The notes under the pieces are model-generated. The model was not told where the DNA came from, did no database searches, and worked only from the letters and a program-made list of their open reading frames with translations. A DNA stretch of 64,000 nt from the NCBI GenBank assembly GCA_964016885.1, contig OZ024740.1:133424001-133488000 (forward strand), written 5' to 3'. The position numbers were made by a program, and so were the translations under genes. The stretch comes from Eledone cirrhosa (Eukaryota). Of the stretch, positions 1 to 59,006 are shown piece by piece (the first letter of the stretch is position 1; each line of letters opens with the position of its first letter).

Positions 1-2480
1 CGGTCTTTCATTATCAGAACTGTGGTACCTTTTGTCAACCACTCTGGTACCTCACCTGACATCAAGCACTCATTGAACATGGCCTCAGGGATCAAGTCGT
101 TGCCTCTTTCTTTCCCCTCAAGCTGTCCAAACAGCATCTTCTGGTTGTTGTCGAACATGCGGTTCTGTTTATACTGACTGACTCTGTTCTCGTATCGCCT
201 GATTTTTGCACTTTGCTACAATGCGTTGCTTCAGTTCCTCTATGATAATATGTAGCTTTTTCCTCCTAGTTTTCTACTTTATTTCCAGTCTATTTTTAGT
301 GCCTATGTTTTTTAGTGTCCCATTCAGTAGGGACTCAAGCTTTCCAATGTCATTTCTCATTTCCCTGATTTGACCACTCAGTCGTTTCTTCCACCACGGC
401 TCTGCTCTTTCTTGTCTGTTGTTTCCTCTCGCTTTTATACCAAGTAGTTTCCTCACCGTATTTGCTGTTGCTTTGAGGATATTGTTGCACTGGTGAAGGC
501 TCCTCGCCTCAAGGTATGGGATGACTTTGTTTACCTTAGCTATTGTTTCTTTTAACTTTTTCCTGTCTACAAATCTTAGGTTCATAGGTCTCCCACTATC
601 ATTGTTCAATTCATCTACCACTAAATTTAGGATGTCAACCGAATCTTGTCCCAGCCCGTCAGCATTCATCTCCTCAGTGGCCGTATCTCTGTTCCAGGTA
701 TTATTTATCTCAGCATCCAGATCATTGTCTGCTTCGGGTGTTTCCTCCGTTCTATCGACCTCTTCACCTTCATTTCCCACTGGCTCGTTTGCCAGGCATA
801 CTCCGCCCTCCATCTCCAAGCTAATCTCTCTGCTCAGTTCCTCCAGTTCCAGATCGCTTATCCACCCATTAGTTCTTATTACCCGAGCCTGCCTGGCCAA
901 TTTTTGGTCATCTAATTTAAATAGACCAATCTCGTTCCAGATGTTATGCATCCGTCTCCTATAGCCCCTCTCCTTGGGGTTACTTTTCAGGTAACATTGC
1001 ATAACAGTTCTATTCAATTCTTTCGTCCAGTTGGTTCTGGTCCCTTTCCTTCTTCTTCTTCCTCCGACACCAGCAGTATTTGGTTCACAGCCAGGTTCCT
1101 GCTGCTGAGCCAGGGAGCACCTGATGGGTGAGAGTCTGTCACATGACGTTCTAGTCTCCATTTCACCGTTATTCGAACAGTTTAGGTTCGATATTTAAAC
1201 ACACTTATCGAGGATTGGCGAATGTATGGTTACATAACCATCTGTGGATTCACCGTCTCCGGTGGTTGCGCCGCTCCACTTGGCTCTTGTGTGGAATTAT
1301 CACCACGCTGTAGACGAACACAAATAAACAAACAAACACACAGGCAGAAAAAAACCCAAAAATGAATAAGCATAAGTTTCATTGTAATGTAGTGTTCGAA
1401 TGTCTGACTTAGTTTTTCCCTTCTCTTCTCTGTCCGTCCGCTTGTTTCTCTCTTCATTCTTATTTTCTTTACGTTTTTTTTTTGTTTTTGTTTTTCTCTG
1501 TTTGTTTTTCTCTTTTTTTGCTGTTGTTGCTGTGCTGCTTTGGTTTTGATGTTTGTTTTTTCTTTTTTCTTTTGAGTCTATCTATATATTTTGATGCCTT
1601 CCTCTTTTTTAGTAGGAATTCTATAATGTGGTGGCAGCAACTAGCAGGGTGCAATGGGAGAGAATAGCGGCGGTAGCGATACTGAGACAGTGGTGGTGGT
1701 GATGTCGACACTGAGGCAGTGGTGGTGGTGATGTGATCGTATTACTGTAGTGATGGTGTTGTAGCAGTGTTAGCAATGAAGGAGTGGTGGCGGCGGTGAT
1801 GGGATAGTGGTAGTAATGATGGCAGTGGTGGTGGTGATGTGTTCGTATTACTGTAGTGATGGTGTTGTAGCGGTGGTAGCAATGAAGGTGTGGTGGCGGC
1901 GGTGATTGTATAGTGGTAGTAATGATGGATGGGCGGTGTTGTCGTTACTGATGTCCGTTCGGTGAATCTATGGGGTTAGTCGCGTATATGTGTTGACATA
2001 AATTCCCTTAATGTTGGAATTAAAAATTTTGTTAAAACTTGGGACAATAATAATAGTATTTATTATTATCATTATTATGTTGAGATTGGTTGTGGTGGTG
2101 GTGAAATTGCAGTTATCTGGCTGTTGTGTTTAGTGTACACAGAGAGGTGATGGGGTAGGCGGTGTATCTAGTTTCTGGTGTTGGTGAGATTGGTGTTGTT
2201 TGGCTGTTCTATATAGTGTAGACAGAGGAGGGGGGGTTCTTCTTCTTCCATTTATAGCCATTTTCTTTTTTGAATATATAATGTACAATACAAAGTTGAA
2301 TATTTGAATATTTGAGCCTTCTAACAATATATTTTGGGTCCGAATTCTTTTGGGGCTCAAGCCGGATGCTTTACGTAACATTTGTACTAAGAGTCGTTAT
2401 TTCACAAATGATTTAAATATGTTAAAAATTCAAAACTTACGGGAGCGATTTCATGACCTTCTACCACCTCGTGCGTCTTC
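1..2480 (-). mobile_element. R4/Dong-like non-LTR retrotransposon, family B copy 1 (5' half with full leader; 3' part runs off the window)
   Basis: Near-identical to 4575-6660. The 5' end (plus strand caaaacttacgggagcgatt...ccacct) matches the 5' end of the copy at 58750-58787. About 250 nt are deleted near position 85 relative to copy 2. Confidence 0.9.
274..1161 (-). pseudogene. N-terminal 295 aa of the R4-like ORF, ended by a premature stop
   Basis: Protein nearly identical to the N-terminus of 2595-5987. TAG replaces the TAC (Tyr) codon of copy 2. Confidence 0.9.
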
Positions 2481-2486
2481 TTCCCT

Positions 2487-2520
2487 TATTATTACTATTA
2501 TTATTATTGTTATTGTTATT
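2487..2520. repeat. Degenerate (TTA)n tract: tail/target between two tandem R4-like copies
   Basis: ttattattactattattattattgttattgttatt lies directly between the 3' UTR of copy 2 and the 5' end of copy 1. Confidence 0.85.
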
Positions 2521-5500
2521 CCTTGAATCTCAGTCATTGATGTTGGTTAACTGGAAAGTCCGTTGGATTGAATATCAAGCCACTACCTGCAGCCTCAGAT
2601 ATTCAGGACGTATCGGAGGGTTCTTGCCGTTCCAAGCAAGCATGCCTTTTGAAGCGTTCCAAAAAGCGTGAAGGGGCCGATTTTCTTTAACCATCCCTGG
2701 AAACCTTTGGAGATAGTCCCCAGTGCGCCTATGACAATCGGGATCACTTTGACCTCATGGCAGTTCCAAATCCTTTTCACCTCCCACTTTAGGTCCTGGT
2801 ATCGGTTAATTTTCTCCCTCTCCTTCTCTTGCACTCTCGTGTCGAACGGGCAGGCCACATCCACAATCAGGCACGATCTTTTTTCTTTGTCCACAACCAC
2901 CAGGTCAGGTCTATTGTGTTCCAGTTTTTTGTCCGTCTGTATCCTAAAATCCCACAGCACCTTCACCTGACTGTTCTCCATCACCGCCTCTGGCCTATGC
3001 TCATACCATTTCTCAGAATGTGGTAGATTGTTTACTTTGCACAGGTGCCAGTGGATCACCCTGCCCATCACATCGTGTCTCCAGCCCTTATAGTGGGTCT
3101 GGGCTAGGTGTTTACACTCGGACACAATGTGAGCCACAGTCTCCTCTCTCTCTCCACAGATCCTGCACAGTGGGCTAGCCTCCTCCTTGTAGATATGGTG
3201 CTTCAACCACTTCGTTTTGAGGGCCTGCTCCTGCGCAGCCATTAGCATTCCTTCTGTAGCCTTTTTGAGGTCTCCTCTTCTCAACCAGTTCCATGTCTGT
3301 GGATCTCTAAATTCAGTTTTCTCAAAGAAGGTACTATGAAGGGATTTTCCCTTAAGGCTGCTCTTCCTCCTTGATGTTATTTCCTCCTTGGATATCCCCT
3401 GGCCTACTGTCCCCTCCTTCAGTACAGCTCTGAGCATTGGCTCCTTACTATAGGTCACGTATTTGTATAGGTTGTTTTTCTCCATCTGAACACAGTCCTC
3501 TATGCTGATAAGACCTCTTCCACCCTCAGATCTCCTTAGGTAGAGTCTATCGACATCACTCCTCTTGTGGAACATGTTGTAGATAGTCAATAGCTTCCTA
3601 GTCTTCCTATCCATTTCTTTTTGTTCAGCAACATTCCATCTCAGAATTCTCGCACTGTACCTAATAATAGACACAGCTCGGGAATTTACTGCGCTTATGG
3701 CATTTCTGCTGTTCAGATGTGACTTCAATACGCTCCTTACTCTCCGAATGTATTCAGTTCTTAACAATTCCTTCATTTTTTTGTTCTTTATGCCATCAGC
3801 CTCCAGAACGCCCAAATACTTGTATCCTTCCTCAGAGTCAATTTCCTTTATCATCTCACCTGTTGGTATCTGGATCCCGTTACTTCTGCTCAACCTACCC
3901 CTCCTCATCACAATGACTCCACATTTACCAATACCAAACTGCATACATATATCACTGCTGAAAATACGGACAGTGTCAACAAGCACATCCAACTCCTTCT
4001 CACTTTTCCCGAAGAGCTTAAGATCGTCCATGAAGAGGAGGTGATTGATGGTAAGCTCTCCCCTTCCCAACTTGTATCCTGCTCTCACTTTTCGCAGCAT
4101 AATGGTCAAGGGCATCAGGGCAAGGACAAACAACAGAGGGGACAGGCTATCTCCCTGGAAGATACCTCTCTTGATCTTCACGCTTCCCAAGGATACTCCA
4201 GTTGATGTCAACTCTGTCTCCCAGGACCCCATACTCCTGCCCAGCAACTGTCTGATGTTATCTGCCACCCTGAAGATCTCCAGGCTTTTGGTGATCCAGG
4301 AATGAGGCACCATGTCAAATGCCTTTCTGTAGTCTATCCATCCCATGGCAAGATCAGTGTGTCTCCTCCTGCAATTCCCCATTACCATCTTATCAATAAG
4401 CAACTGGTTCTTTGTACCACGTGACTTCTTTCGGCATCCTTTCTGTTCGTCCGGCAACAAGTTGTTTGTGTGGAGGTGATGGTAGATTTCCTCAGACACA
4501 ATGCTCGTCAACAGTTTCCACATTACGGGCAGACATGTGATAGGTCTATAGTTGGTAACATCATTACCCTTGATTCGGTCTTTCATTATCAGAACTGTGG
4601 TACCTTTTGTCAACCACTCTGGCACCTCACCCGACACCAAGCAGTCATTGAACATGGCCGTCAGCTTCGGGTGGAGGGATGTTAAATGTTTAATCCAATA
4701 CCTCTGCACACCATCTGGGCCTGGTGATTTCCAGTTGGTTAGTTTTTTGGCTTGCCCCTTAAGAGTTTCAACTGTGATACTCAAATCAGTCTGTTGCTGT
4801 GCCTGCTCATCGATCTCCCTCTGTACTGTCTCAATCCACCCTGCCTGGGCATTGTGTCTAACATCCTGCTCCCATATTCCTCTCCAGAATGTTTTAGCTT
4901 GTTCCGCCCCAGGGATCAAGTCGTTGCCTCTTTCTTTCCCCTCAAGCTGTCCAAACAGCATCTTGTGGTTGTTGTCGAACATGCGGTTCTGTTTATACTG
5001 ACTGACTCTGTTCTCGTATCGCCTGATTTTGGCACTCTTTGCTACAATGCGTTGCTTCAATTCCTCTATGATAATATTTAGCTTTTTACTCCTAGTTTTG
5101 TATTTTATTTCCAGTCTATTTTTAGTGCCTATGTTTTTTAGTGTCCCATTCAGTAGTGACTCAAGCTTTCCTATGTCATTTCTCATTTCCTCGATTTGCC
5201 CACTCAGTCGCTTCTTCCACCACGGCTCTGCTCTTTCTTGTCTGTTGTTTCCTCTCGCTTTTATACCAAGTAGTTTCCTCACCGTATTTGCTGTTGCTTT
5301 GAGGATATTGTTGCACTGGTGAAGACTCCTCGCCTCAAGGTATGGGATGACTTTGTTTACCTTAGCTGTTGTTTCTTTTAACTTTTTCCTGTCTACAAAT
5401 CTTAGGTTCATAGGTCTCCCACTATCATTGTTCAACTCATCTACCACTAAATTTAGGATGTCAACCGAATCTTGTCCTAGCCCGTCAGCATTCATCTCCT

Positions 5501-6665
5501 CAGTGGCCGTATCTCTGTTCCAGGTATTATTTATCTCAGTATTCAGATCATTGTCTGCTTCGGGTGGTTCCTCCGTTCTCAGGACCTCCTCACCTTCATT
5601 TCCCGCCGGCTCGCTTGTCTGGCATACTACACCCGCCATCTCCAAGCCATTCTCTCTGCTCAGTTCCTCCAGTTCCAGCTCGCCTATCCACCCATTAGTT
5701 CTTATTACCCGAGCCTGCCCGGCCAATTTTTGTTCATCTAATTTAAATAAACCAATCTCGTTCCAGATGTTATGCATCCGTCTCCTGTAGCCCCTCTCCT
5801 TGGGATTACTTTTCAGGTAGCATTGCATAACAGTTCTATTCAATTCTTTCGTCCAGTTGGTTCTGGCCCCTTTCCTTCTTCTTCTTCCTCCAACATCAGC
5901 AGTATTTGGTTGACAGTCAGGTTCCTGCTGCTGAGCCAGGGGGCACCTGTCGGGTGAGAGTCTGTCACATGACGTTCTAGTCTCCATTTCACCGTTATTC
6001 GAACTGTTTATGTTCGATATTTAAACACTCTTATCGAGGATTGGCGAATGTATGTTTACATAGCCATCTGTGGATCCGCCATCCCACTTGGCCCTTGTGT
6101 GGCATTATCACCACGCTGTATACGGACACACATAAACAAACAAACACACGGGCAGAAAGGGCCCCAAAAATGAATAAGCATAAGTTTCATTGTAATGTAG
6201 TATTCGAATGTCTGACTTAGTTTTTGTTTTTTAAGTTTTACTTTTTCCCCCCCTCTTCTCTGTCCGTCCGCCTGCTTCTCTCTTCATTCTTATTTTCTTT
6301 ACGTTTTTGGGGTGTCTTTTTTTGTTTTTGTTTTTCTCTGTTTCTTTTTCTCGTTTTTTGCTGTTGTTGCTGTGCTGCTTTTGTTGTTTGTTTTTTCTTT
6401 TTTCTTTTGAGTCTATCTATATATTTTGATGCCTTCCTCTTTGTTAGTAGTAGGAATTCTATAATGTGGAAGTGGCAGCCAGCAGAGACTGGCGGCGTTG
6501 GCGATACTGAGACAGTGGTGGTGGTGATGTCGATACCGAGGCAGTGGTGGCGGTGATGCGACCGTATTACTGTAGTGATGGTGCTGTAGCGGTGGCAGCA
6601 GCAGTGAAGGAGTCAAGGGGTGGTGGCGGCGGTGATGGGATAGTGGTGGTAATGATGGCCGTAGT
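2521..6665 (-). mobile_element. R4/Dong-like non-LTR retrotransposon, family B copy 2 (ORF intact, leader 5'-truncated)
   Basis: Single RT+RLE ORF, short 3' UTR ending in (TAA)n, and a leader homologous to 1162-1850. Confidence 0.93.
2595..5987 (-). CDS. 1130-aa reverse transcriptase with restriction-like endonuclease (R4/Dong-type ORF)
   Basis: N-terminal W-T-x-E-x-N...CY...GY..RM...W Myb-like motif; RT motifs KSPGPDG, YRPITCL, WIDYRKAFD, QGDSLSPLLF, LFMDD; CCHC knuckle CRIC..ETVAHIVSEC; RHD; RPD..D..EKINRY PD-(D/E)xK endonuclease. Confidence 0.95.
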   Translation of the reverse strand: METRTSCDRLSPDRCPLAQQQEPDCQPNTADVGGRRRRKGARTNWTKELNRTVMQCYLKSNPKERGYRRRMHNIWNEIGLFKLDEQKLAGQARVIRTNGWIGELELEELSRENGLEMAGVVCQTSEPAGNEGEEVLRTEEPPEADNDLNTEINNTWNRDTATEEMNADGLGQDSVDILNLVVDELNNDSGRPMNLRFVDRKKLKETTAKVNKVIPYLEARSLHQCNNILKATANTVRKLLGIKARGNNRQERAEPWWKKRLSGQIEEMRNDIGKLESLLNGTLKNIGTKNRLEIKYKTRSKKLNIIIEELKQRIVAKSAKIRRYENRVSQYKQNRMFDNNHKMLFGQLEGKERGNDLIPGAEQAKTFWRGIWEQDVRHNAQAGWIETVQREIDEQAQQQTDLSITVETLKGQAKKLTNWKSPGPDGVQRYWIKHLTSLHPKLTAMFNDCLVSGEVPEWLTKGTTVLIMKDRIKGNDVTNYRPITCLPVMWKLLTSIVSEEIYHHLHTNNLLPDEQKGCRKKSRGTKNQLLIDKMVMGNCRRRHTDLAMGWIDYRKAFDMVPHSWITKSLEIFRVADNIRQLLGRSMGSWETELTSTGVSLGSVKIKRGIFQGDSLSPLLFVLALMPLTIMLRKVRAGYKLGRGELTINHLLFMDDLKLFGKSEKELDVLVDTVRIFSSDICMQFGIGKCGVIVMRRGRLSRSNGIQIPTGEMIKEIDSEEGYKYLGVLEADGIKNKKMKELLRTEYIRRVRSVLKSHLNSRNAISAVNSRAVSIIRYSARILRWNVAEQKEMDRKTRKLLTIYNMFHKRSDVDRLYLRRSEGGRGLISIEDCVQMEKNNLYKYVTYSKEPMLRAVLKEGTVGQGISKEEITSRRKSSLKGKSLHSTFFEKTEFRDPQTWNWLRRGDLKKATEGMLMAAQEQALKTKWLKHHIYKEEASPLCRICGEREETVAHIVSECKHLAQTHYKGWRHDVMGRVIHWHLCKVNNLPHSEKWYEHRPEAVMENSQVKVLWDFRIQTDKKLEHNRPDLVVVDKEKRSCLIVDVACPFDTRVQEKEREKINRYQDLKWEVKRIWNCHEVKVIPIVIGALGTISKGFQGWLKKIGPFTLFGTLQKACLLGTARTLRYVLNI

Positions 6666-6694
6666 GAGTTATTCTTAGCGAGTTATTCTTAGAC

Positions 6695-14516: not shown

Positions 14517-14732
14517 CCTGGCGGATTAGCAGAATTGTTAAGATCGTCAGGCAAAATACTTTGTAGCATTGAGTTATTGCCCTTTATGTTTTGTGTTCAA
14601 ATCACGCCGAAGTTCATTTGGCTTTGACCCTTCTGGGGTCGATAAAATAAAATACCAGTTAAGTACTGCGGTCGATATAATTCATTTACCTCGTCCCCAA
14701 AATATATTAGTATTGTGCATGAATTAGAAACC
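14517..14732 (+). mobile_element. Older degenerate copy of the main SINE family
   Basis: ggcggattagcagaattgtta...gttcaaatcacgccgaag...ggggtcgataaaataaaataccag. Confidence 0.7.
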
Positions 14733-14750
14733 ATTATTTTCCTGAATAAA

Positions 14751-14935
14751 GGGCGGGGGATTGGCAGTATCGGTAGAGGGTCGGACGCCATGATTTCCAG
14801 CATAGTTACATCCCTTTACGATCTGAGTTCAAATCCCGCCGAGGTTGACTTTGCCTTTCATCCTTACGGGGTCGATAAAATAAAGTACCAGTAATGCACT
14901 GGGTAATTGCTGGCCTTGTGCCTAAAGTAGAAACA
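14751..14935 (+). mobile_element. tRNA-derived SINE (main family) with 18-bp TSD
   Basis: A box tggcagtatcggt, B box gagttcaaatcc, central gcctttcatccttacggggtcgataaa; TSD attattttcctgaataaa at 14733-14750 and 14936-14953. Confidence 0.9.
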
Positions 14936-15067
14936 ATTATTTTCCTGAATAAACATATTTGACCTTTGCCATTACGGCATAAATATTAATGTATCTAAGA
15001 ACACAGTCGTGTCAAATTTGTATATGTCCTTCCTATTTTTAGATTTTGTGGAAGGTACATATAGAGG

Positions 15068-30047: not shown

Positions 30048-30626
30048 ATGTCAAACGTAACTTTGAGGAATGCATCAAATAGTAATGTAAATCTGGAAAC
30101 TTTAGCACCTCCTTTGGTTAATTCCACCACTCCAGTTCCTAATATAATTAATCCTGGGCCACTTGCAAATAAAGCGGTAAGTAATCTTAATCGTAAATAT
30201 AAGTGCCCTATTAGAACTAATTATCCTCTTAGTAATTTCTGTCTCGATAAAAACTTAATATATGAATGTAAAGTGGTAACTAGTACCAATACCTATACCT
30301 ACATAGGCTCTACTTCTACCTCCTTTAAAGCAAGATTCTATAATCATTCTTCTACATTTAAATCCCCACTTAAAAAGACCAGCACCGCACTCTCAGAACT
30401 TATTTGGTCCTTAAAAGACAAAAACATAAATTACGAAATTTCTTGGCGTAAAATATACAACGCATCTCCATACTCCAATGCTTCCATATCTAGTGTTTGT
30501 AATTTATGTCTCGTTGAACAATTTACCATTATCTCGAATTTCAACACAATAATAAATCGAAGAACCGATATATTTGGACTTTGTAATCATAAATCCTACA
30601 AGACCTTTCACAAAGTATATAGCTGA
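30048..30626 (+). CDS. C-terminal GIY-YIG endonuclease fragment of a Penelope-like element
   Basis: NLIYECKV...YIGSTSTSFKARFYNH...STALSELIW.LK...CNLCLVE...INRR....CNH. The RT part is missing. Confidence 0.8.
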   Translation: MSNVTLRNASNSNVNLETLAPPLVNSTTPVPNIINPGPLANKAVSNLNRKYKCPIRTNYPLSNFCLDKNLIYECKVVTSTNTYTYIGSTSTSFKARFYNHSSTFKSPLKKTSTALSELIWSLKDKNINYEISWRKIYNASPYSNASISSVCNLCLVEQFTIISNFNTIINRRTDIFGLCNHKSYKTFHKVYS

Positions 30627-30686
30627 TGTCCTAAAACATATTCCACGAGTCACGGTTATCTTTACACATCATTATATTCTACAATG

Positions 30687-30872
30687 AGGGCGGTGGATTG
30701 GCAGTATCGGTAGAGGGTCGGACGCCATGCTTTCCAGCATAGTTACGTCCCTTTATGATCTGAGTTCAAATCCCGCCGAGGTTGACTTTGCCTTTCATCC
30801 TTACGGGGTCGATAAAATAAAGTACCAGTAATGCACTGGATAATTGCTGGCCTTGTGCCTAAAGTAGAAACA
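30687..30872 (+). mobile_element. Main-family SINE inserted in the PLE 3' region, 16-bp TSD
   Basis: TSD attatattctacaatg at 30671-30686 and 30873-30888. Confidence 0.92.
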
Positions 30873-31618
30873 ATTATATTCTACAATGTATTAATTTGGT
30901 TTTCTCTTATATTAAGCCTTTGATCTTTTTTTCTATAGCCTTAGATTTTCGCTCAAAACTTCGTAGGTTTTGTAAACAAATTATGACGTCATATGTTTTT
31001 CTACGTTTATAAATCTTTCTAGCAATTTCCTTTATTTACTTGTTGATATTAAATAAAAATTAAACAGTATACCCCACATATATAGATTTTTACTAGACAT
31101 TTTTTTATTTTGACATAGACAGACTATTTTTATTTTTATTTTATTTTATAAAAATCTTTTTTTATATTTATTTTATTTTATTTTATTTTATTTTATTTTA
31201 TTAATACATTTTTACACTTCTTAATCCAATTTTTAGTATTTAAACCCAATATAAAATAATATAACCAGTTTCTATATTTAGAGCTCTAATATTTGAATAC
31301 CGTCTATAATATTCGCACATACACCTCATCAATTTACTTGTTAACCATTATTTACAGCTGTTTTCATTTTGACACCGTTCCTCATCAAAAGTCTCTCTCT
31401 CTCTCTATTTCTCTTTCTCTTTCTCTCTCTCACCCTCTCTTACTTTTTTCTCCTTTTTCTTCCTTTCTTCTCTTTCTTTTTCCATTTTCTCCTCGTCTTT
31501 CCTTTCTTCTATTTTCCTATCTATTTCTTACTATAGTATTAACACTTATATTTTTGCCATTTGTAGACTTAACACTTTCCTGTAAACAAGTGCTATTATG
31601 CCTTATATCATGTTACTT

Positions 31619-39459: not shown

Positions 39460-40315
39460 AATATAATTTCAGCGAGATCAAATTCCGGCAGTGGTTGAAA
39501 ACAAAGCGAAACGCAATATCCGAGTTATGCTGACAAGCGCTCCATGGACTAAAAAAGGACCAGCGCAATAAACATAGGTTATAAAAGCCAAACAAACTGA
39601 GACGGCGATTAAGAAGCTATCAACCACCTAACCCCCCAAAACGTGGCAAGCCAAACAGGTCAAAACAAAAGAATATATATATAAAACAGTGTCAAGTCAC
39701 AGCCGATTTGTGCTAGATTTGTTTGGAAAGGACTACTTTGATATCTTTTATTCTACCTCCCGCTCCCAGATCATAAGAATTTAATCAAATATCTACCTAT
39801 GTCAAGCTACCTATGTATCCATCTATTCAAAGACGATAATTACATTCAACTTTCTATCTATCTGTCTGATTGTCAACTTAACTGCATGCCCGTCTATTTA
39901 TCTATCTAACTGGATATATGTCAGTCTCTCTATCTATCTTACTGCCTATCAACTTACATGTTTGTTTATCTATCTACCTCTCTACATATCTAGCTGTTTA
40001 TCTATCTATGTACGTATCTATCTATCTGTCTGTCAGTCTATCTGTCTTTCAGCCTCACTATCAATCAATCAATAGTTATCTAATTATGTATAGTTATATA
40101 TGTATCTTCGGACAAGCACAATATTAACAACAAAGCACAAATCCCAATAGCAAACCGATGTATAGATAAAGAGATAGATATATAGATAGCTAGAGAAAGA
40201 AAGTCAAGGAGAGTGAGTCATTGAGAAAGAGAGAGACAGGCAGATACAGACAGAGAGACAGATACTGAATCAGATCAAAGTCGTAATTTATATGTGTGAT
40301 AATGGTTAACAAAAA

Positions 40316-40492
40316 TCGTTTCTACTTTTGGCACAAGACCAGCAATTACCCAGTACATTACTGGCGCTTTATCTTATCGACCCCGTAAGGATGAAAGGCA
40401 AAGTTAACCTCATCGGCATTTGAACTCGGACCGTAAAGGGGTGTAACTAAGCTGCAATGCATGGTGTCCGACCCTCTACTGAAACTGCCATC
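40316..40492 (-). mobile_element. Main-family SINE, antisense
   Basis: Reverse complement matches 14751-14935. Confidence 0.88.
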
Positions 40493-41463: not shown

Positions 41464-41640
41464 TTGGCAGTATCGGTAGAGGGTCGGACGCCATGCTTTC
41501 CAGCATAGTTACGTCCCTTTACGATCTGAGTTCAAATCCCGCCGAGGTTGACTTTGCCTTTCACCCTTACGGGGTCGATAAAATAAAGTACCATTAATGC
41601 ACTGGGTAATTGCTGGCCTTGTGCCTAAAGTAGAAACAAT
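41464..41640 (+). mobile_element. Main-family SINE
   Basis: Near-identical to 14760-14935; ends aaagtagaaacaattatt. Confidence 0.92.
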
Positions 41641-42373
41641 TATTGTATTAGTGTGTGCGTTTATTGTTTTGTGTCGTTTATTAAAGTTGCCCTCTTTTTG
41701 AAGAGCATTGTGAGGTGCTGTAAGTTGGGCGCAAATGGTTGACGTGGAGCCATAAACTCCACAACGGCCATATTCGTTTAGTATCTAATTTATAAATCTC
41801 ATCGGCCGTTTGTAGATTATACTCATGTTTACATGACTTTTGTTTGCTAATGATGACAATGATTTAAATATTAGGGATTTTGTAATATACTATTGGTAGT
41901 CGTTTGTGGCTTCGTATAATATAGTTTTTGTTTTGTCTCATCAGCTTTTTGAAAATGTGTTCTTTTATCTTATAGTTATTATACATTTGATTTTATATTT
42001 ATAATTTTCATAATACGAACGTATGTGTATGGTAGAAAGCATGTTATGCCTGATGGATTTATAGCATAATTCTATGGCTTAGCATTATTATTATTCAACA
42101 TCTAGAACACTAGAAACACCACACATGGCAATGTATGAAACTATATACATTATATGTACGTATAATGAACATACATTTACTCTAGCAATGAGTATGTCAC
42201 GTTGTAATCGTGTCACAGATGACTCCACAACAATCTAAGCGCAGTGAATACCTTTTTCTCTCTTCACTGTAAACATAACTTAATCTTGCTAAGAGTAAGT
42301 CCTCATACAGAAAATTCTCATAGATTTTGTAAATGGTCTAAACTTGTTAATGCTTATGTACATGGAAAGAAAG

Positions 42374-42921: not shown

Positions 42922-44707
42922 TATATATTGGTAAACGGAATAGAAAATGCTGACAAATTGTTCACAGTTGAAAAATGGTTTAATTAGGAATAAAAGAGTA
43001 TTAGTGATTGTATGGGTTAGTATTCAGTTGCGGTTTTAAGTTTTTAAGTTTTTACCGGTTGCGCATTTCTAAATGCTTTTCAAAAATAATTTTGAGATAG
43101 AGTGTTCGTGCTGTTTGCTTTGATCTGATTAGTTTTGGGAATTCTACCTGTTTTTATGTTAAAAAAGTGGCTCCAATTTGCAAAAATTCTTGTGGTCAAA
43201 ACAATTTTGATTGGTCGGTAGAGGTCATGTGAATGTAAAAAATTGATTTTGCGCCAAGACAGTTTTTATGTTAAAAAAGTGGCTCCAGCAAAAATTCTTG
43301 TGGTCAAAACAATTTTGATTGGTCGGTAGAGGTCATGTGAATAAAAAATTGGTTTTCTGCCTACAGGCAGAAATCTGGGACCGCTATGGGAACGAAAACA
43401 GCCCCCACTTATGCCAACCTAGTCATGGGATACCTGGAAATCATCCTCTACACTAAAGTCCTAAACAAATTTGGAAACACCCTCCACTTACACATTGAAA
43501 GGAACTGGAAGCGATATATAGATGACTGTTTCATCCTTTGGCACGAAAACATCGAAAAGCTTAAAGAATTTCACACCCTTATAAATGGGCTCAACACAAA
43601 TATTAACTTCACGATGGAATACAGCCATCAACAACTCCCCTTCCTCGACATCCTCATTAATATCCATAACAAAAAAATAGAAACAGACATATACTACAAG
43701 CCCACAGACTCCAAGCAATATCTCCCCTTCAACTCTTGCCACCTAGACACGTTAAAATTAATATTCCCTACAACTTAGCCAAGAGAATCTGTACTATAGT
43801 CTCCAATAAAAACATCTGCTACTTACGGCTTCAAGAACTAAAGGACACACTCATAGGCAGGGACTACCCTGCATCACTAATTGACAATGGAATCCAACGT
43901 GCCCTAAAACTCAGTACCCAGGACCTTAGACACCTTAAAGTAAATCAACCAAAACTAAAAGCTCTTCCATACATCTCCACACACAACCCCCTCAACAATG
44001 AGGCCTTTGACACCATCCTCCAGAACATCCCTGTATTGAAAAAGGACCATAGAATGAACCAAATTCTACGAACACACGATATCATAAAGAGCAAAAGACA
44101 ATCCAAGTCAATGAAAAACATCTTAACACATGCCAAAGTACTGCCAACCACAACAACGAAACCCACAGTAAAAAAATGCGATAGACCCAACTGTGCCATT
44201 TGCATCAACCTAATAGAGGATTCGGAATTCTATTTCAAAGATGGACAACGTTTTATAGTAAAACACAATTTCACATGTTCATCGGAAAATCTAATATATG
44301 TATTAACTTGCTCAGGTTGTCGAGAACAATACATAGGCCAGACCAAAAACAGCCTCCGCCAACGCATGACTGTCCATAGATCCCAAATCAAAATACGGGA
44401 ATACAGGAAAATACCACTGAGTGAACACATTGATACCTGTGCCGCCCAAAATCATCCCAACTTCAGAATCTTTCCCCTCTACAACTTTAAAGATAATGCC
44501 ACCCACACCCAGCGCATCAGCAAGGAATCTTACTTCATTAACAAATACGGACCCCGTCTAAACACTTCTCCCTAAGACGAATCCACAACATACACACGTC
44601 AACATACATACCTACATCAGCACACATCTCTACCCACATATAAACACAATGTCATACGTAAACACACATGCTCTATGGTGCAACACAAAAAAATATATGT
44701 GCATATA

Positions 44708-47804: not shown

Positions 47805-50175
47805 AGTTGCATTTATCTTGCCTTATGTTCATACGAGTTATCACCAAGTCACAACCAGTGACCTCAGGAGACAACAAGGTTCGCCATGTTCAAGAAAGAA
47901 CATACATACACACACATGCATCTTTAGGTGTTTAGACTTTTGATGTAATTATATTGACAGAATCTTCCTTAGTATATGGGCAGTTCCCATTAGTACTATC
48001 TTTTCTATTTCTCCTATACGCGGGTTTACTGGGATTTGCGATAAGTAATCATTAGACACCGTAGGTATCATTCCTAGAGCGCCTACAACCAGTGGTATTG
48101 TTTTAGTTCTCAATTTCCACAATTTTCCAATTTCTATCTCCAGGTCCTTATACTTGCTCAATTTTTCAAATGTTTTTATAGATACATTCTTGTCTATAGA
48201 AACGGACATAGCAATTAGCAGGCATACCCTCTTTTTAAAGTCCTTCAGTATTATATCAGGTCTATTTGCATCTATTTTTCGGTCTGTTTGGATGCTAAAG
48301 TTCCACAAGATTGAGATGTGACCTTTTTCAAGTATGGGAGGTGGTTGATGCTCCCACCAATTCTTTTTATGGGGCAGGTCAAAATGCTTACACATTATCC
48401 AATGTATGTATTGTGCAGCTCTGTCATACCTGTTTAGGTATTCGGTTGGAGCTATAGAACTGCACATTGAAATTATATGATAAATGGTCTCTGGTTGTTT
48501 TTTACATACACGGCATAATGGGTTGCATCCATTTTTTATTATGTTGGCTTGGTAATTTTTGTTTGCAGACACTGATCTTGTGCCGAAATAATCAGTCATT
48601 CAGTCTCCGATTTCAGTCCAGAGATGCCAACCACTGATGGGTTAAAGTTTTGTCAACATCAGGATTGTTAGCTCGCTCTGGGTATTTTCCATACAGAGGC
48701 TTTTCTTGCCATTCCTTAGCCAGTTTCTGTAGCAGTTCTTTCTTCGCAGTTACTTTTACCTGCTTTGCTTTTTCTGTGTTTTCCATTTCAGCAGCAAATG
48801 GGACTTCTGAAATGTGTAGTCCATTACTGTATCTTCTGCATCTTTTGTAATGGAGTATGATCTTTTGATGCTTTCGCGTTTCAAAACGAGTTTGATCATC
48901 CAATCATGTGATTCCCTTAGATATGTAGATAATCCAATTGTTGCAGTTTTCAACGCAATATCTAGCTGGATTAACCCACGTCCTCCTTCTTTCCTAGGGA
49001 GATATATTCTATCTGTATCTGCCTTAGGGTGATGCATTCTGTGCATGGTTAAGAATTTTCTAATTTTTATATCGAGCCTGCGGATCTCTGTGCTCGATCA
49101 GTTGATGACATTGTAACTGTAGGTTACTAGTGGTATGGCATCGAGGCTATCTATTCCTTGCATTCAATTCCAGTAACATTCCTTCCTTATCCTTTCCCTC
49201 ATTGTCGAGTGCTTGATTCCGTCTCCTTCACAAACACCTAGATATTTGTAAGTTTCCTCTTGATCAAGTTCTCTTATCACGTTCCCCCGATCAAGATTAA
49301 TGTCTGAACTTTTCAGCAGCTTTCCTCTGGTGAACGTTGCTTTGGCGCATTTATCTAGTCCAAACTCCATTTTAATGTCATCACTGAACTGCTCCAGAGT
49401 GGATAATAACCCTTGCAATTGTTCATCATGTTTTGCAAATAGTTTCAGGTCATTCATGTAGAACAAGTGATTAATGGTTTTGTCATAGACTTTATATCCA
49501 TGTTTTGTTTCATTGAGCATTTTACTTAATGGTATAAGTGCGATGCAGAATAAAAGCGATGATAAATAGTCACCCTGAAAAATTCCACAATTAATATTAA
49601 CTTCTCCAGCTTCCAGTGATTTTGTTTCACTATTCAAAAGGAGTGTCGTTTTCCACGTCTTCATACTGAATGATAAGAACCTCCTGACAACGGGGGATAT
49701 TTTGAAAATCTCTAAACATTTTTCAATCCAACTGTGTGGCAAACTATCGAATGCTTTTTTATAATCTATCCAAGCAATTGATAGATTTTTGTCTCTATTA
49801 TGACAATCTTCCAGTATCATTTTGTTAACCAAAAGCTGATCCTTACAGCCATATGAGCCTCGTTTACACCCTTTCTGCTATATAGGAAATAGGACATTTG
49901 TTATCAGGTGGTCATATGTATATTCAGTTAGGACTGATGTTAAAATGTTATACATTGTGGTCAAGCAAGTTATCGGTCTGTAATTTTTGGGATTGTTTGT
50001 CTCATCATTCTTCGGAAGCAGAAATGTAATGCCGTTAACTAGCCATGGTATCTTTTCTGGCTCCTTAACTATTTCGTTGTAAAGTTGGGCTAACAGCTCA
50101 TGAGACTGGTATTTTTTCTTTTCCTGGGGATTTCCATTTGTTGGTTTTTCTTAGAGCCAAGCGCAACTGTTCAAC
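47805..50175 (-). mobile_element. R4/Dong-like family A, 5'-truncated and disrupted, tail (TAA)n at 47766-47804
   Basis: [56 protein letters not shown]; clearly diverged from family B. Confidence 0.92.
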
Positions 50176-50186
50176 TATTATTATTA

Positions 50187-50362
50187 TTGGCAGTATCGGT
50201 AGAGGGTCGGACGCCATGCTTTCTAGCATAGTTACGTCCCTTTACGATCTCAGTTCAAATCCCGCCGAGGTTAACTTTGCCTTTCATCCTTACGGGGTCG
50301 ATAAAATAAAGTACCAGTAATGTACTGGGTAATTGCTGGCCTTGCGCCTAACGTAGAAACAA
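50187..50362 (+). mobile_element. Main-family SINE flanked by (TTA)n
   Basis: Near-identical to the other copies; TTA tracts on both sides. Confidence 0.92.
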
Positions 50363-50413
50363 TTATTATTATTATTATTATAAGTAGAAACAATTATTAT
50401 TATTATTGTTATT

Positions 50414-53400
50414 ATTGAATGCCATAGTTGACGGAGGCTCGACTCTGTAAGGTATAGTAATTTTTAACCGCTATAACATTGTAAATTGTTTAAAACTTTA
50501 ACCAAATTGTAGATAAAGACACCCTCCTCCTCCTCGTGAGAGGGGTCTTTCTGCCCGTTATTTGGCTCTTTGGGGTTAAATAACCGCTTAATGGGGGTTT
50601 TGTGCCCAATATTCATTTTAAACCAAAAAATACATGGCTACAGAAAAGAATTTTCACAAGTCACTCTCACTCATTCCGTCTACTTCTTCCTCAATCGTCA
50701 CTACATCAGAGAGAAGATTGTCTCTCTCCCTCCCGTCTTTTTCGCAAGCGACGCCAGTAAAAAAAGAAAAATATAGTTTCTGATAGTTTCCAAGAGCACG
50801 TGCATACCGTGGAACATTTCTCCACGACGACGACAACGACGAAAAATGTGTGCGGTAAATACGGAAAGCTATTTCATTTGTCCGACGTCAAGAATAATAG
50901 CAGTAGCAGCCGTAATAACAGCAGCAGCAGCAACAGTGACAAGGAAAACAATAGTAGCAGCCACAACAGCATCAGCAGCAGCATAAACAAAAGCAGCAGC
51001 ATAAACAACAGCAGCAGCAGCAACAACAACGAGAACAACAGCAGCAGCAGCAACAACAACAACAACCACAGCAACAGCGGCTGCGGCAGTCGTAGTAACA
51101 GCAGCAACAACAAAAGTAATAGCAGCTCTGACGACAACAACAACAACAACAACAAAGAAAAACCAATCTCGTTTGGAGGTATCGCAAAGAACCTGGAAAC
51201 CATCCTTATAACAAATGAGGAATTACAGGAAGCAAAGAAGATGGTGACGAAAACCTGACACCGAGCAATCTGCAAGGCAGCCGAAATATTTTTCGAAACC
51301 CAACAGCACTGTACGGTCGCGTAATGTACATTAAGCTCGAAATCCCGTAGGGTTGAAAGAGCCACAGAGGCTCAAATACAAAAGGCCTTAGGGTCTGTGT
51401 GGTAGCGAAAATCACATATCATCTGAGTCAAGAAATATGCCACCGTGGACGTGCTTTTTTCCACACCCCAGGTGGCAAAGGCTCAATCCTTAGTGACCCT
51501 AAGGAGCGAGGAAATGGTGTTTGTACCCTCCTACTGCGGACAAAAAATTGTGCGGGTCAAACTGATCCAACTCACCCCCGGGAGGCGCCTTCTTGGCTGG
51601 CCGCGTCTGTCCTCGCCCGAATCGAGAACAAAACAACTGTACTGAAAGTACAGAAAAAAGTAAGAGAAGATTGGGTCGGCAACTCCATTGAGATGTTAAT
51701 CCAAACCAACCAGGAGTTCATCGAAGCTATCCCGGATGTGATAGACTTCGATAACGGCACTCAACTGCCCATAAGTGTTGAGCGCAAACGCCCGAAATGC
51801 TTTCGCTGTGGATCAAAGACTCACCTCAAGGCTTTCTGTAATGAGAAGACCCTGAGAAAGGAGAAAACCCCCTTCTTCCGAAACCAACACTACTGCTACC
51901 AGCAACAGGACAGGCGGCAACCAGGAAGGATAGGGTCGACCATCGTTACCTAGCGGCAGCCCTGAGGGCGGCTGGCTTTGGGCCCGTCTTCAGAGGGTGG
52001 ATCGCTGCCATGCACAGCGACATCTGCTCTGTGGTGAGAGTGAACGGTCACCTTTCGGAACCGTTCAACATCATGCGCTTGGTCCGCCAAGGATGTCCCC
52101 TCTCGTCCCTCTTGTACGTATTGACAATCGAGCCATTTCTGCACAAACTGGAGACGTTGAGTGGGGTCCCGTGCGAACTAGGATGCGGTGTTCCGTGTCA
52201 GCATATGCGTAGGATGTCACCGTAGTGGTGTCGAACGCCAAACACATCGAGGCGATCGGCACTACACTAAGAGAATACGAAGCGAAGACAGGAGCAATGA
52301 TCAACCAGGAAAAGTCAGTGGGCCTGCAGCGCGGCACATGGAGAGACAGGTCCATGCCGTCCAACAGCGTCGTCGGGCGCTGGACGGACCGATTAAATTC
52401 CTAGGGGTCTGGTTCGGTCCGGACCTCCAGACGGACAAAAACTGGGACGAGGTGACGAGCAGGGTGGTTTCTCTCAACCAGAAATAGGCAGAGAGGAAGC
52501 TATCCCTGAAAGGTCGAGCGGAGGTGGCTAACGCGTACATCGCGTCCGTCATCTACTACCGCCTGACCGTCGTACCTTGTCCTAAGCCCCGCCTGACTGC
52601 GCTGGAGCGTTTGCTCTTTCGCTTTTTGTGGAAAGGACACACTCCGATGGTCAGGCGGTCCATCTGCTGTCAACACCCGCTACGTGGAGGGCTGGGAATG
52701 CCATGGCTGATGATGCGCAGACACGCGCTCAAGCTACGACATCTCCACCTCTTCCTCGACGGGGATCAGGTATGGTCGCCGTTTGCTAGACAAGTCTTTC
52801 CCCAGCTCGTCTCCTTGACGGAGCTGCAGTCCTGGGTCAAGCGAAGACCGAAAGGGAGCGCTTGGAGACTGGAATGTCTTCAGGCGCTCACATCCCTCGA
52901 CCAATCGGGCAATGTGATCGGTGGAAACTCCAACTTGGCTTTCTATAGAGGATTAGTGGAGGAGAAGAGCGACGACGTACTTGGAGAAACTCGAGGTGTC
53001 GACGAAAATTACTTGTCAATCTCTTCGGAAGGACTTTCGGGCCGGAGCCTATGGACAACTTCCAGAAATCCCTGGCCCGGCAGTGCTACCAAGGAGCTTT
53101 GCCAGATCGGGATACACTATACAGGCATGGAGGTGCCGTCAACCGGGCATATCCGAGATGCGCGCAGGGCGAAGAAAGCGTCCTGCACGCACTCGTCCAG
53201 TGACCGAGCATTGTTGACTTGTGGGTTTATGTCGAACACCTGCTGTCACGTGTGGGACGGATCCAGCTATCAGCTGAGTCCATCGTCAGGATTTCCCCGC
53301 CCTCTTCCTTTAGCCGGGAAGTGTAGGCAGTTTTTATCTGTCTGGTGGCCATGGCAAAAGAGATAGTATGGTGGACACGTTTGAAAGGGCTGAAGACAAG

Positions 53401-53953: not shown

Positions 53954-54140
53954 AGGGCGGTGGATTGGCAGTATCGGTAGAGGGTCGGACGCCCATGCTT
54001 TCCAGCATAGTTACGTCCCTTTACAATGTGAGTTCAAATGCCGCCGAGGTTGACTTTGCCTTTCTTCCTTACGGGGTCGATAAAATAAAGTACCAGTAAT
54101 GCACTGGGTAATTGCTGGCCTTGGGCTTAAAGTAGAAAGA
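53954..54140 (+). mobile_element. Main-family SINE
   Basis: Full-length match to 30687-30872. Confidence 0.92.
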
Positions 54141-54149
54141 ATTATTATT

Positions 54150-57100
54150 GTTCTTCGAGTCTCAGCCATTGATGTTATTTAACTGGAAAGTTGGTTGAAA
54201 TGAATATCAAGCCGCTACCTGCAGCCTCAAATATTCAGGACGTATCGGAGAGTTATTGCTGTTCCCAGCAAGCATGCTTTTTGAAGTGTTCCAAAAAGCG
54301 GGGCTGGACTAACTTTCTTTAACTATCCTTGGAAACACTTTGAGATAGTACCTAGTGCGTCTATGACAATCCGGACAACTCTGACTTCATGGAAGTTCCA
54401 AATCCTTTTTACCTCCCACTTTAAGTTTGGTATCGGTTAATTTTCTCCCTCTCCTTTTCTTGCACTCTCGTGTCGAATGGGCAGGCTACATCCACAATCA
54501 GGCACAATCTTTTTTTCTTGTCCAAAACCACCAGGTCTGGCCTATTTGGTTCCAGTTTCTTATCCGTCTGTATCCTAAAATCCCACAGCACCTTCACCTG
54601 ATCGTCTTCTATCACCGACTCTGGCTTATGCTCATACCACTTCTCAGAATGTGGTAACTTGTTTACTTTGCATAGGTGCCAGTGGATCACCCTATCCATC
54701 ACATCATGTCGCCAGCCCTTATAGTGAGTCTGGGCTAGGCGTTTACACTCGGATACAAAGTGAGCCACAGTCTCCTCTCTCTCTCCACAGATCCTACACT
54801 GTGGGCTAGCCTCCACCTTGTGAATATGGTGTTTCACCCACTTCGTTTTGAGTGCTTACTCTTGCGCAGCCATTATCATTCCTTCTGTAGCATTTTTAAG
54901 GTCTCCTTTTTTTAACCAGTTCCATGTCTGTGGAACTCTAAATTCAGTTTTCTCAAAGAAGGTACTATGAAGGGATTTTTCATGAAGGTTGGTTGTTATT
55001 TCCTCCTTGGACATCCCCTGGTCTATTGTTCTCTCCTTCACTGCAATTCTGAGCATTGGCTCCCTACTTGTTGAGCATTGGCTCCCTACACGTATTTGTG
55101 CAGATTGGTTTACTCCATCTGAACACAGTCATCTATGCTGATAAGACCTCTTCTACCTTCAGATCTCTTTAAGTAGAGTCTATCGACATCACTCTTGTGG
55201 AACATGTTGTAGATAGTCAATAGCTTCCTAGTCTTCCTATCCATTTCTTTTTGTTTAGCAACATTCCATCTCAGAATTCCCGCACTGTACCTAATAATAG
55301 ACACACCTCGGGATTTACTGCACTTATGGCATTCCTACTGTTCAGATGTGATTTTAATACGCTCCTTACTCTCCGAATGTATTCAGATCTTATCAATTCC
55401 TTCAAATTGTTGTTCTTGATGTCATTCTGCCTCCAGAACACCTAAATATTTGTATACTTCTTCAGTGTCAATTTCCTTTATCACCTCACCTGTTGGTACA
55501 TGGATTCCGTTGCTTCTGCTCAATTTACCCCTCTTCATCACTAGGACTCCACACTTATTAATACCAAATTGCATACATATATCACTGCTGAAAATACGGA
55601 CAGTGTCAACAAGTACATCCAACTCCTTCTCACTCTTCAAAAAGAGTTTAAGATCGTACATGAAGAGGAGGTGGTGATGGTAAGCTCTCCCTTTCCCAAC
55701 TTGTATCCTGCACTTACTTTTCGCAATATAATGGTCAGGGGTATCAGGGCAAGGACAAACAACAGAGGGGACAGACTGTCTCCCTGGAAGATACCTCTCT
55801 TGATATTCACGCCTCCCAAGGATTCTCCACCCGATGTTAATTCTGTTTCCCAGGACTTCATACTTTTGCTCAACACTGTCTGATGTTATCTGCCACCTTG
55901 AAGATCTCTAGGCTTTTGGTTATCCAAGAATGAGGTACCATGTCGAATGCCTTTTTGTAGTCTATCCATCCCATGGCAAGGCCAATGTGTCTCCTCTTGC
56001 AATTCCTCATTACCATCTTATAAATAAGTAGCTGGTCTTTTGTACCACGGGACTTCTTTCGGCATCCTTTCTGTTCCTCCCTTCAACAGGTTGTTTGTGT
56101 GGAGGTGATGGTATATTTCCTCAGACACAATGCTTCTTAACGGTTTCCACATTACGGATAGACATGTGATAGGTCTATAGTTGGTAACATCATTACCCTT
56201 GAATCGGTCTTTCATTACCAGGACTGTGGTACCTTTGTCACACGAGATCAAGCAGTCATTGAACTTGGTTGTCAGTTTCGGGTGGAGGGATGTTATATTA
56301 TTAATCCAATAGCGCTGCACACCATCTGGGCCTGGTGATTTCCAGTTGGTTAGTTTTCTAGCCTTCCCTTTAAGAGTTTCAACTGTGATACTCAAATCAG
56401 TTTGTTGGTGTGCTTCTTCACTAATCTCCCTTTGAACTGTCTCAATCCACACTGCCTTATCATTATGTTCAACATCCTTCTCCCATATTCCTCTGCAGAA
56501 TGTCTTAGTCTGTTCCGCCTCAGGGATCAAGTCATTGCCTCTTTCTTTCCCTTCAAGCTGCCGAAACATCTTCTGTTTGTTGTCAAACATGCGGTTCTGT
56601 CTATACTGACTGACTCTGCTCTCATACCGCCTAATCTTTGCACATATTGCTACAATGCGTTGCTTCAGTTCCTCTATGATAATATTTAGCTTTTTCCTCC
56701 TAGTTTTGTACTTGATTTCCAGTCTATTTCTAGTGTCTATATTTTGTAGTTTCCCATTCAGTAGGGACTCAAGCTTTCCAATGTCATTTCTCATTTCCCT
56801 GATTTGACCACTCAGTCGTTTCTTCCACCAAGGTTCTGATCTTTCTTGTTTGTGGTTTCCTCTCGCTGTTATGCCAAGTAATTTCCTCACCGCATTTGCT
56901 GTTGCTTTGAGGATATTGTTGCATTGGTGAAGGTTCCTCGCCTCAAGGTATGGGATGACTTTGTTCACTTTAGCTGTTGTTTCTTTTAAATTTTTCCTGT
57001 CTACACATCTTAGGTTCATAGGTTTCCCACTATCATTGTTCATTTTATCTACCACTAAGTTTAGGATATCAACCAAATCTTGTCCTAGCCCGTCAGCATT

Positions 57101-58787
57101 CATTTCCTCAATGGCCGCATCTTTGTTCCAGATGTTATTTATTCAGATCATTGTCTGCTTCGGATACTTCCTCCGGTCTCTCAACCTCTTCACCTTCATT
57201 TCCCACTGGCTCGTTTGCCTGGCATAATCCACTCTCCATTTCCAACCTAACCTCTCTGCTCAGTTCCTCCAGTCTTATTACGTTAGGTCTTATTACCCGA
57301 CTCTGCCCGGCCAATTTTTGTTCATCTAATTTAAATAGACCAATCTCGTTCCAGATGTTATGCAGCCGTTTCCTATAGCATTTTTCCTTGGGTTACTCTT
57401 TAGGTAACATTGCATAACAGTTCTATTCAATTCTTTCGTCCAGTTGATTCTTGTCCCTTTCCTTCTTCCTCTTCCTCCAACACCAGCAGTATTTGGATAA
57501 CATCCAGGTCCCTGCTGCTAGGCCAGGGAACACCTGCTGACTCACATGACGTTCCAGACTCCACTTCACCGTTATTCGAACTGTTTAGGTTCGACATTTA
57601 AACACTCATATCGAGGATTGGTGAACGTATGGTTACATAACCACCGGTGATTTCATCACCCTAGTGATTTCATCCCCCCACCCCCCGTGATTTTAGCGTG
57701 GCACCATCATGCTGTAGAAGAACATAAATAAATAAATAAATAAATAGATCAAAACTTTTAAAAATAAACATGAGTTTCACTGTAATGTTTGAATGTCCGA
57801 CTTGGTTTTTTTTTGCTTGTTTGTTTGTTTTTTTTCCTTTGCGTTTTTCGTCTTTCAAGGTCAGTAACATCGGTTACTAGTGTTGTTGTTGCTGCTGCTG
57901 CTGCTGCTGCTAAGGGAAGTAGGGATTGTGTTCAAAACTGTTGACATTTGTGTTTGTTGTTGCATTTGTTTCTGTCTGTGTTATGTTCTATAATTTTTCG
58001 ACTTGTTGCTTATCATTTGGCAGTATCGGTAGAGAGTCGGACACCATGCCCTGAAGCACAGAGCTACGTCCTCCTACGGTCCGAGTTCAAATCCAGCCGA
58101 GGTTAACCCCGCCCCTCATCCCTACGGGGCCGACAAAACAAAGCACCAGCAACACACCGAGGCAATTGCTGGATCCGTGCCAAAAGTAGAAACGATTATT
58201 ATTATTATATTATAGTTTAGATTTGTCATCGTTTAAACTAAACATTTTGAGAGAGTTTAGAGATACAACAACAACATTATTTTGGTGTTGTTGTTGTTGT
58301 TAGCTGTTTGACCGAGTCACTAACCCAGTCTATTTATATATGTTGATACCTTATTCGCTTCTTTTCATGTGTAGCGGCACTACCACCATCCCTCTCTTAA
58401 GTGGTGAGGGAATAGTGGTGGTAGCGATGATGCAGTGTCGGCGGTGAGGATGGGATAGCAGTACTATAGGAATGGTGCTGGTTTGTATTTGGCTAGATTT
58501 TGTGTGGTAGTGGTGATGGTGATGGTGGCTCCGGCGGTGGTGGGCTGGTGGTGAAGTTAGTTGGCTGTTGTTTTCTAGCCATTTTCTTTTCTGACTATAA
58601 CATTTCTGGTACAAAATTAAATATTAAATATTGGAGCCCTATGCCTATTGTGATGCGTTGCCACTTCCTGGGAGTTAAGACTGATATTTCATGCTCCAAT
58701 TGTAATAAGAATTATTGTATCACAATTGTTTAAATAAGTAAAAAATCAAAAACTTACGGGAGCGATTCCATAACACTCTATCCACCT
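54150..58787 (-). mobile_element. R4/Dong-like family B, full-length but disrupted copy 3 (ORF remnant 54227-57564)
   Basis: ORF fragments colinear with 2595-5987; start ATG changed to GTG; leader ends homologous to 1162-1400 and 2250-2470. Confidence 0.9.
58018..58195 (+). mobile_element. Main-family SINE with clustered T>C changes, inside the R4 leader
   Basis: Aligns end to end with the other copies, but many central T residues are C. Confidence 0.9.
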
Positions 58788-59006
58788 ATTGAATACCATG
58801 GTGGGGGAGGCTCGGCTCTGTAAGGTATAGTAATTTTTAACCATTATCACAATTGTAAATTGTTTAAAACTTGAACAACATTGTAGATAAAGACACCCAC
58901 CTCCTCGTGAGAGGGGTCTTTCTGCTCGTTATTTGGCCCTTCGGGGTTAAATAACCGCTTATTGGGGTTTTGTGCCCAATATTAATTTTAAACCGTAAAA
59001 AAAAAC

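Follow-up and report, generated by a model that had tools for sequence, protein, structure and literature searches.

A GT dinucleotide near the 5′ end of a LINE family in the genome of Eledone cirrhosa is, judging from the structure of its genomic copies, a working spliceosomal 5′ splice site in RNA that was retrotransposed. The site lies at position 2440 of the window, the whole stretch of 64,000 nucleotides that was analyzed (assembly GCA_964016885.1, contig OZ024740.1, positions 133,424,001 to 133,488,000). Its use by the spliceosome is indicated by five insertions joined exactly at this GT, with none at a control breakpoint. The preliminary description of this DNA had paired the GT with an AG at 1308 as a retained intron, with spliced RNA used for translation and unspliced RNA as the transposition template. 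Nearly all copies do keep this 1.1-kb segment; the two sites were never found joined, and every observed join takes a nearer AG. The explanation that we consider best overall, at a probability of roughly 0.6, is a rarely used donor in a leader that carries a promoter and is normally retained in the RNA, with splicing only occasional.

The minus strand of the window holds three copies of the element, a LINE with a single ORF and RT, CCHC, and RLE motifs. Copy 1 (lineage A) has its 5′ end at 2485, carries a broken ORF at 274–1161, and starts within the (AAT)n tail of copy 2 (2486–2515), as a head-to-tail insertion. Copy 2 (2506–6666) belongs to lineage B, the youngest, which has at least 40 near-identical copies in the genome; it is 5′-truncated at ~6666 and so has no donor, its distal site lies at 6116, and its ORF is intact (1,130 aa, 2595–5987 on the minus strand, with RT, CCHC knuckle, and RLE motif). 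Copy 3 (54141–58787), of the older lineage C, has its donor at 58757, its distal site at 57712, and a SINE within its leader (58017–58200). The lineages of this family, here family I, differ by 6–10% in the ORF, and DNA searches of the genome with the family were read from the best 40 scored matches each, of 1,056–1,603 candidates. In Pfam, the 1,130-aa ORF matched RVT_1 only, with no APE endonuclease, and the best solved relatives of its protein were R2 proteins. By the usual motif definitions, the protein has a CCHC motif at 941 and an RPD..D motif at 1026 (a PD-D restriction-like nuclease); a match to an N-terminal C2H2 finger was absent. In nearly all copies shown, the 5′ end is preceded by (AAT)n or (AAG)n, a Dong-like TAA target. 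Like Bombyx mori Dong and Ascaris R4, as the available part of PMC3774820 describes them, the element has a single ORF with RT, CCHC, and RLE and a 5′ end at TAA repeats, and it is this anatomy and target, not an RT phylogeny, that sets the R4/Dong label.

Other repeats share the neighborhood of these copies. A different LINE is present in two plus-strand copies (50413–53009 and 58787–64000) head-to-head with the Dong-like elements, and its 5′ end directly adjoins Dong 5′ ends at several other loci. Short plus-strand ORFs at 30048–30626 and 44054–44575 resemble, by eye, the GIY-YIG ends of Penelope-like elements. An abundant SINE occurs at 14724–14944, 30662–30881, 40311–40490, 41464–41644, 50186–50367, 53954–54146, and 58017–58200; it also follows AAT runs, stands in tandem in lineage C leaders, and in ~40% of aligned copies contains an acceptor-like TTTAG close to its 5′ end.

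The donor GT was confirmed at 2440 in copy 1 and at 58757 in copy 3. Its distance from the 5′ end, previously given as 30–40 nt, is 45 nt in copy 1 when measured from the true end at 2485, and copy 3 has lost ~15 nt. The 45-nt 5′ segment (2441–2485, minus strand), which would be exon 1 if spliced, has an ATG of its own, opening a 5-codon frame that ends at the TAA within the donor. The donor GTAAGT (2440–2435) sits in a 19-nt block (2432–2450, minus strand) that is invariant across lineages A, B, C, and D and a second family, family II. In the first 300 nt this block is the longest invariant run over five lineages, the next longest being 8 nt, in a sample in which 57 of 65 copies were not selected on the donor. 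Because 10 of the 19 nt are exonic and exon positions −3 to −1 read CCC, the conservation goes beyond the requirements of a splice site. Genome-wide, the 15-mer across the donor has 2,104 exact occurrences (its reversed control has 1); bare GTAAGT is common, occurring 14 times on each strand of the window. A change from GTAAG to GTGAG, still a good donor, is shared by five copies in two tandem groups (G000:C5:83890277-88773958).

Genome pattern searches yielded six copies, representing five insertions, that are joined exactly at the donor GT. In four of these insertions the join ends precisely at an AG preceded by a T-rich tract, for which the chance expectation at the AG density of the leader is ~2e-5, and these exact joins (L289, L291, L318, and L319) have a microhomology of 0–1 nt. 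L289 and L291 lack 167–168 nt, from the GT to an AAG after a T-rich tract; the homologous proximal acceptor of copy 1 is the T-rich tract and AAG ending at 2265, at about +167 (2265–2295, minus strand). L318 (family II) and L319 (family I, lineage C) have the donor joined to a SINE at the place where intact SINEs read TAG. The join site reads TAG in 31 of 81 SINE copies aligned for L318 and 32 of 80 for L319, and TTG in 39–40. Leaders of lineage C often hold this SINE with TAG at the corresponding place; a family II progenitor for L318 is absent among the sampled copies. L319 keeps the conserved block at 1369–1423, and for that reason does not decide between an unused 1308 site and a product that cannot integrate.

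The remaining pair, L287 and L288, is a local tandem duplication (98.3% identical) and was counted as one insertion. Here 162–164 nt are missing and the deletion ends 5 nt before the proximal AG, at a point that reads CAG in lineage C; no AG stands there in any sampled family II copy. A-to-I editing was considered as the source of this acceptor and rejected as too weak (in lineage B, 17 A>G against 7 T>C changes, for 226 A and 131 T). The leader of L287, a spliced family II copy, itself holds a full-length lineage B element with an intact ORF (L331:1068-1347).

The target of each of the three join searches was the terminal part of the 5′ segment with any continuation other than GTA. All 31 matches of the first were inspected, giving 25 unrelated sequences, 2 point changes, and 4 joined copies. 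The second gave 23 matches, 18 of which read as point changes, and 2 of the other 5 are L318 and L319; the third gave 36, of which 30 read as point changes and 6 are unrelated. The last letter was restricted, so that each search misses about a quarter of joins, and joins whose first three exon letters are N-T-A are left out; the first search is blind to the distal junction of lineages A and B, which dedicated junction searches covered. A control breakpoint 6 nt upstream, present in 51 of 88 copies, gave no deletion in 55 matches (31 unrelated, 19 that read as point changes, and 5 exon-2 variants). These five had looked like a loss of the leader mediated by homology, which was rejected because their acceptors are intact. 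None of the 17 leader indels listed showed a GT..AG deletion pattern.

In a tree of 23 copies, the four family II joined copies were scattered, each having either a branch to itself or unspliced copies as neighbors. A spliced subfamily is absent: apart from the one local duplication, the joined copies are singletons. L289 and L291 match different sublineages yet have one base change beside the junction in common, so that they possibly derive from one event and four events is the floor. Four of the five join events fall in family II, the smaller family (P = 0.019), which makes up 21 of 80 classified copies among 88 donor-bearing copies taken in chromosome order (59 family I, 21 family II, 8 unclassified). 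At the family II rate, ~11 spliced copies would be expected in family I, and 1 was found. This deficit fits equally an acceptor that is not used and one that is used but whose product does not integrate. A general exclusion of spliced RNA from transposition is not supported, since five insertions come from RNA spliced to nearer acceptors; none comes from RNA spliced to 1308.

Judged by sequence, the distal site is built like a good acceptor in each of the five lineages sampled. TACAG ends at 1308, 6116, and 57712 in the three copies, as first described, and the distance between donor and distal site is likewise correct at 1.0–1.1 kb (1,133 nt in copy 1 and 1,046 nt in copy 3). The U-rich tract and TACAG of copy 1 (1308–1368, minus strand) follow a block with two invariant runs of 20 nt (1369–1423, minus strand) that is found in family I only and contains motifs resembling the branch-point consensus. 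The tract is 71–76% pyrimidine and free of AG for 87–94 nt in four of five lineages and for 41 nt in lineage C, and the site looks far stronger as an acceptor than the AAG actually used. Its AG is kept by 121 of 124 ORF-anchored copies, and by 48 of 50 when only copies not found via the AG are counted. Conservation of both boundaries had been proposed; this applies to the donor block, whereas the acceptor, though conserved, does not stand out from the sequence around it (10 of its 13 columns are invariant, compared with 44 of 55 in the upstream block and 66 of 71 immediately preceding the ORF), in a test limited by lineages only 6–10% apart in the ORF.

A strong acceptor that is never found joined needs explaining. 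The 2441–1307 junction had no match genome-wide with one mismatch allowed, and a degenerate pattern covering all lineages gave 3 matches, all unrelated. The junction of donor and 1308 was thus found in no copy, against ~1,550 family I copies with an intact donor, which places the share of distal-spliced family I copies below ~0.2%. This leaves two readings: little use of the 1308 site where transposition occurs, or a product that cannot integrate. In a sequencing run whose kind is not on record (X4), contigs nearly identical to the young lineage bridge both sites unspliced, with short sides of 32 and 75 nt. The 2441–1307 joint was not found in contigs of four runs, of kinds not on record, against copy 1, nor in those of X4 against a young full-length copy; as contigs drop rare variants, this is not evidence of absence. 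X4 also has more and deeper contigs on the leader interior than on the ORF (L073:1740-2411), unlike X1–X3, and contig depth cannot rank parts of the gene.

Pairing of the 1308 tract was examined as a possible mask. Predicted pairing is 0.70–0.86 in lineages A, A′, B, and most of D, and 0.37–0.55 in C and one D copy; compared with shuffled sequences the z values run from −2.4 to +3.5, which is not significant, and neither a consensus helix nor a compensatory change appeared in 28 sequences, so that masking by a hairpin is kept only as a possibility.

Family II was reached from a 5′-truncated copy in the window (47805–50186, minus strand), the query that led to its full-length elements. Its protein is also Dong-like and 35–39% identical to that of family I, and elements of both families are found together in head-to-tail arrays within (AAT)n/(AAG)n. 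They share a 5′ module of ~620 nt that includes the donor (1868–2485, minus strand; 77–79% identical). The 3′ part of the family II leader differs from that of family I and has neither a long U-rich acceptor nor a 1308 site, from which it follows that the module moves between families independently of 1308. The module is likely an internal promoter, given its position and its variable tandem monomers: copy 1 has a 106-nt tandem repeat in its leader (1715–1928, minus strand), and the youngest lineage has ~330-nt monomers in variable number at the corresponding part. By eye, a GC-rich block just upstream of the ORF is common to family II (L108:4275-4420, minus strand) and a distant Dong-like metagenome element (L111:225-370, plus strand). 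It is followed by a possible small pseudoknot, the lineage C counterpart of which begins right after the 1308 AG; folding of the two candidate pseudoknots gave z values of −0.5 and −1.3 and no Rfam match.

Upstream ATGs are present in the segment, as the preliminary description had said, and the proposed splice would cut their number from 11–28 to 2–6 (47 copies). Most lineage B copies would be left with five, and the leader 3′ of the distal site (1162–1307, minus strand) has 4 in that lineage. The ATG at 1161 is derived, since lineages C and D read GTG or GAG there. The ancestral start lies 33 nt upstream, at 1194–1192, where copy 1 reads ATA and copy 3 has an ATG (57597). In both families the ancestral start is part of a TAAATG stop-start overlap, a hint of re-initiation, which is a known mechanism at such overlaps. 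A need for this splice in translation is not supported, given that family II has the same donor without such an acceptor, in ~550 copies with an intact donor.

We also looked for related elements and for a 5′ ribozyme. A first metagenome scan found no relatives in other species; a second gave 80 loci, and of the 13 whose 5′ ends were inspected by eye, five have a full leader. None of these five full-length relatives has the layout of donor and distal acceptor, their leaders being short and, by eye, without such a tract. One relative starts with a tRNA-like sequence called as tRNA-Gly (L130:84-168), and a second start looks similar by eye with no tRNA called (L121:~105-190), a sign that other Dong-like elements may have a Pol III-type 5′ end. 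In 6 loci, Rfam gave no match to an HDV-like ribozyme above chance, and 0 of 17 leaders matched a hand-written descriptor used without a positive control. Dong and R4 free their 5′ end by an HDV-like ribozyme, according to the available part of PMC3774820; here none was detected, in a weak test, and there is instead a leader of 0.8–2 kb with a donor.

The 1.1-kb segment is likely a promoter-bearing leader, since no copy is joined to 1308 and the donor belongs to a 5′ module common to two LINE families. On the reading that we favor, this module would act as the internal promoter of both. The donor would be kept for transcription, either because U1 binding near the start supports elongation or because it overlaps a promoter motif. 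Early elongation is protected by a strong 5′ splice site whether or not splicing follows, according to PMC12211998, and an element that relies on an internal promoter could for this reason retain such a site early in its RNA. Now and then the donor would be spliced to the nearest usable AG and the RNA reverse-transcribed, leaving a spliced copy that is predicted to be a dead end, like the human L1 SpIREs. The 1308 site would be little used in cells permissive for transposition, possibly owing to its distance or to pairing of the U-rich tract, and the ORF would be translated from unspliced RNA, with re-initiation or internal entry as candidate mechanisms. The strength of the 1308 site, the family I deficit, the reduction in upstream ATGs, and the one join that is not at an AG were weighed against this explanation.

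These same points can be arranged differently. It is possible, if rather unlikely, that splicing from 2440 to 1308 makes an mRNA with a short leader, barred from integration by losing the block at 1369–1423, and that only RNA keeping the block is copied. Family I would then be, and we regard this as equally doubtful, an RLE LINE with a leader intron of 0.8–1.9 kb, in which the distal-spliced RNA is the mRNA, the block is a template signal, and mis-spliced RNAs that keep the block integrate. If that were so, a retrovirus- or Penelope-like logic would have evolved in a LINE by capture of a donor-bearing promoter module. That a proven donor is followed by a strong acceptor, conserved in five lineages, speaks for it, as do the lower count of upstream ATGs after the splice, the absence at 1308 of any of the ~11 spliced copies expected in family I, and the retention of the block by L319, the sole spliced copy of that family. 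There is also a precedent in Penelope and Chlamys-3, whose 5′-UTR introns over an internal promoter are spliced and yet retained in DNA, in the account available from PMC8557442, and this keeps the model of the preliminary description alive. The 2440–1308 junction, however, was seen nowhere, 2–6 upstream ATGs would remain, and spliced RNA is not barred generally, as the five insertions attest; family II is successful with this donor although it has no acceptor of that kind, and the short leaders of the five full-length metagenome relatives have, by eye, no such tract.

Less probable again is that the 2440–1308 splice is mainly somatic, or a form of host restriction, suppressed in the germ line, leaving no heritable copies and being of no use to the element. 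Tissue-specific control of transposon splicing is known from Drosophila P elements, and such a state would account for a strong acceptor without retrocopies. In the youngest lineage, 21 of 30 sampled copies have no proximal AG and the distal tract is poorest in T (0.53 against 0.63–0.64), both as if splicing were a cost, but the persistence of AG and tract in all lineages would be left unexplained. We give very little credence to a non-functional donor at which DNA deletions or template switches happened to start. Internal deletions of the leader are indeed common, one of the five joins ends 5 nt from an AG, and the L318 progenitor is absent from the sample; yet four ends lie exactly at an AG after a T-rich tract, at two unrelated acceptors and with 0–1 nt of microhomology, the control breakpoint gave none, and 0 of the 17 listed indels read GT..AG.

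The occasional splicing that we favor has a close parallel in human L1, for which the available part of PMC5860796 describes a donor kept inside a RUNX3 site, several acceptors, and SpIREs amounting to ~2% of full-length copies. Both systems have one conserved donor near the 5′ end within a conserved leader element, several acceptors, mostly unspliced RNA or copies, and rare spliced retrocopies, the family here being known from DNA. The features of SpIREs recur here as precise GT-AG loss of leader in L289, L291, L318, and L319 (L287/L288 being 5 nt off), from one donor and two types of acceptor, in 5 insertions against 2,104 intact donors. Unlike L1, an APE element, the present one is a single-ORF element of RLE type; its spliced share is ~0.2% of copies rather than the ~2% of SpIREs (PMC5860796), one acceptor is supplied by an inserted SINE, the donor module is common to two distant families, and the strongest-looking acceptor is never used in a retrocopy. 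With Penelope and Chlamys-3_cRei, as portrayed in the available part of PMC8557442, the family shares an intron-shaped 5′-UTR segment over a likely internal promoter that is kept in genomic copies. There, spliced mRNA was seen by Iso-Seq, whereas here spliced copies integrate and are known from DNA; those elements are PLEs with a GIY-YIG nuclease and pLTRs, and this is an RLE LINE with an AAT tail. Octopus Dong-R4 families are reported to have been recently active (PMC9115989, PMC13282606), and the words "intron" and "splic" are absent from the main text of both papers as available. An RLE LINE with a leader intron or spliced retrocopies did not appear in the literature searched, which excludes most subscription papers.

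For this family the genome alone records donor splicing in RNA that became heritable copies. A working donor has a strong, conserved acceptor downstream, and no copy among ~1,550 joins the two; the donor-bearing 5′ module is common to families whose proteins are only 35–39% identical. SpIRE formation, found described only for human L1 in the literature searched, extends to an RLE-type LINE of another animal lineage.
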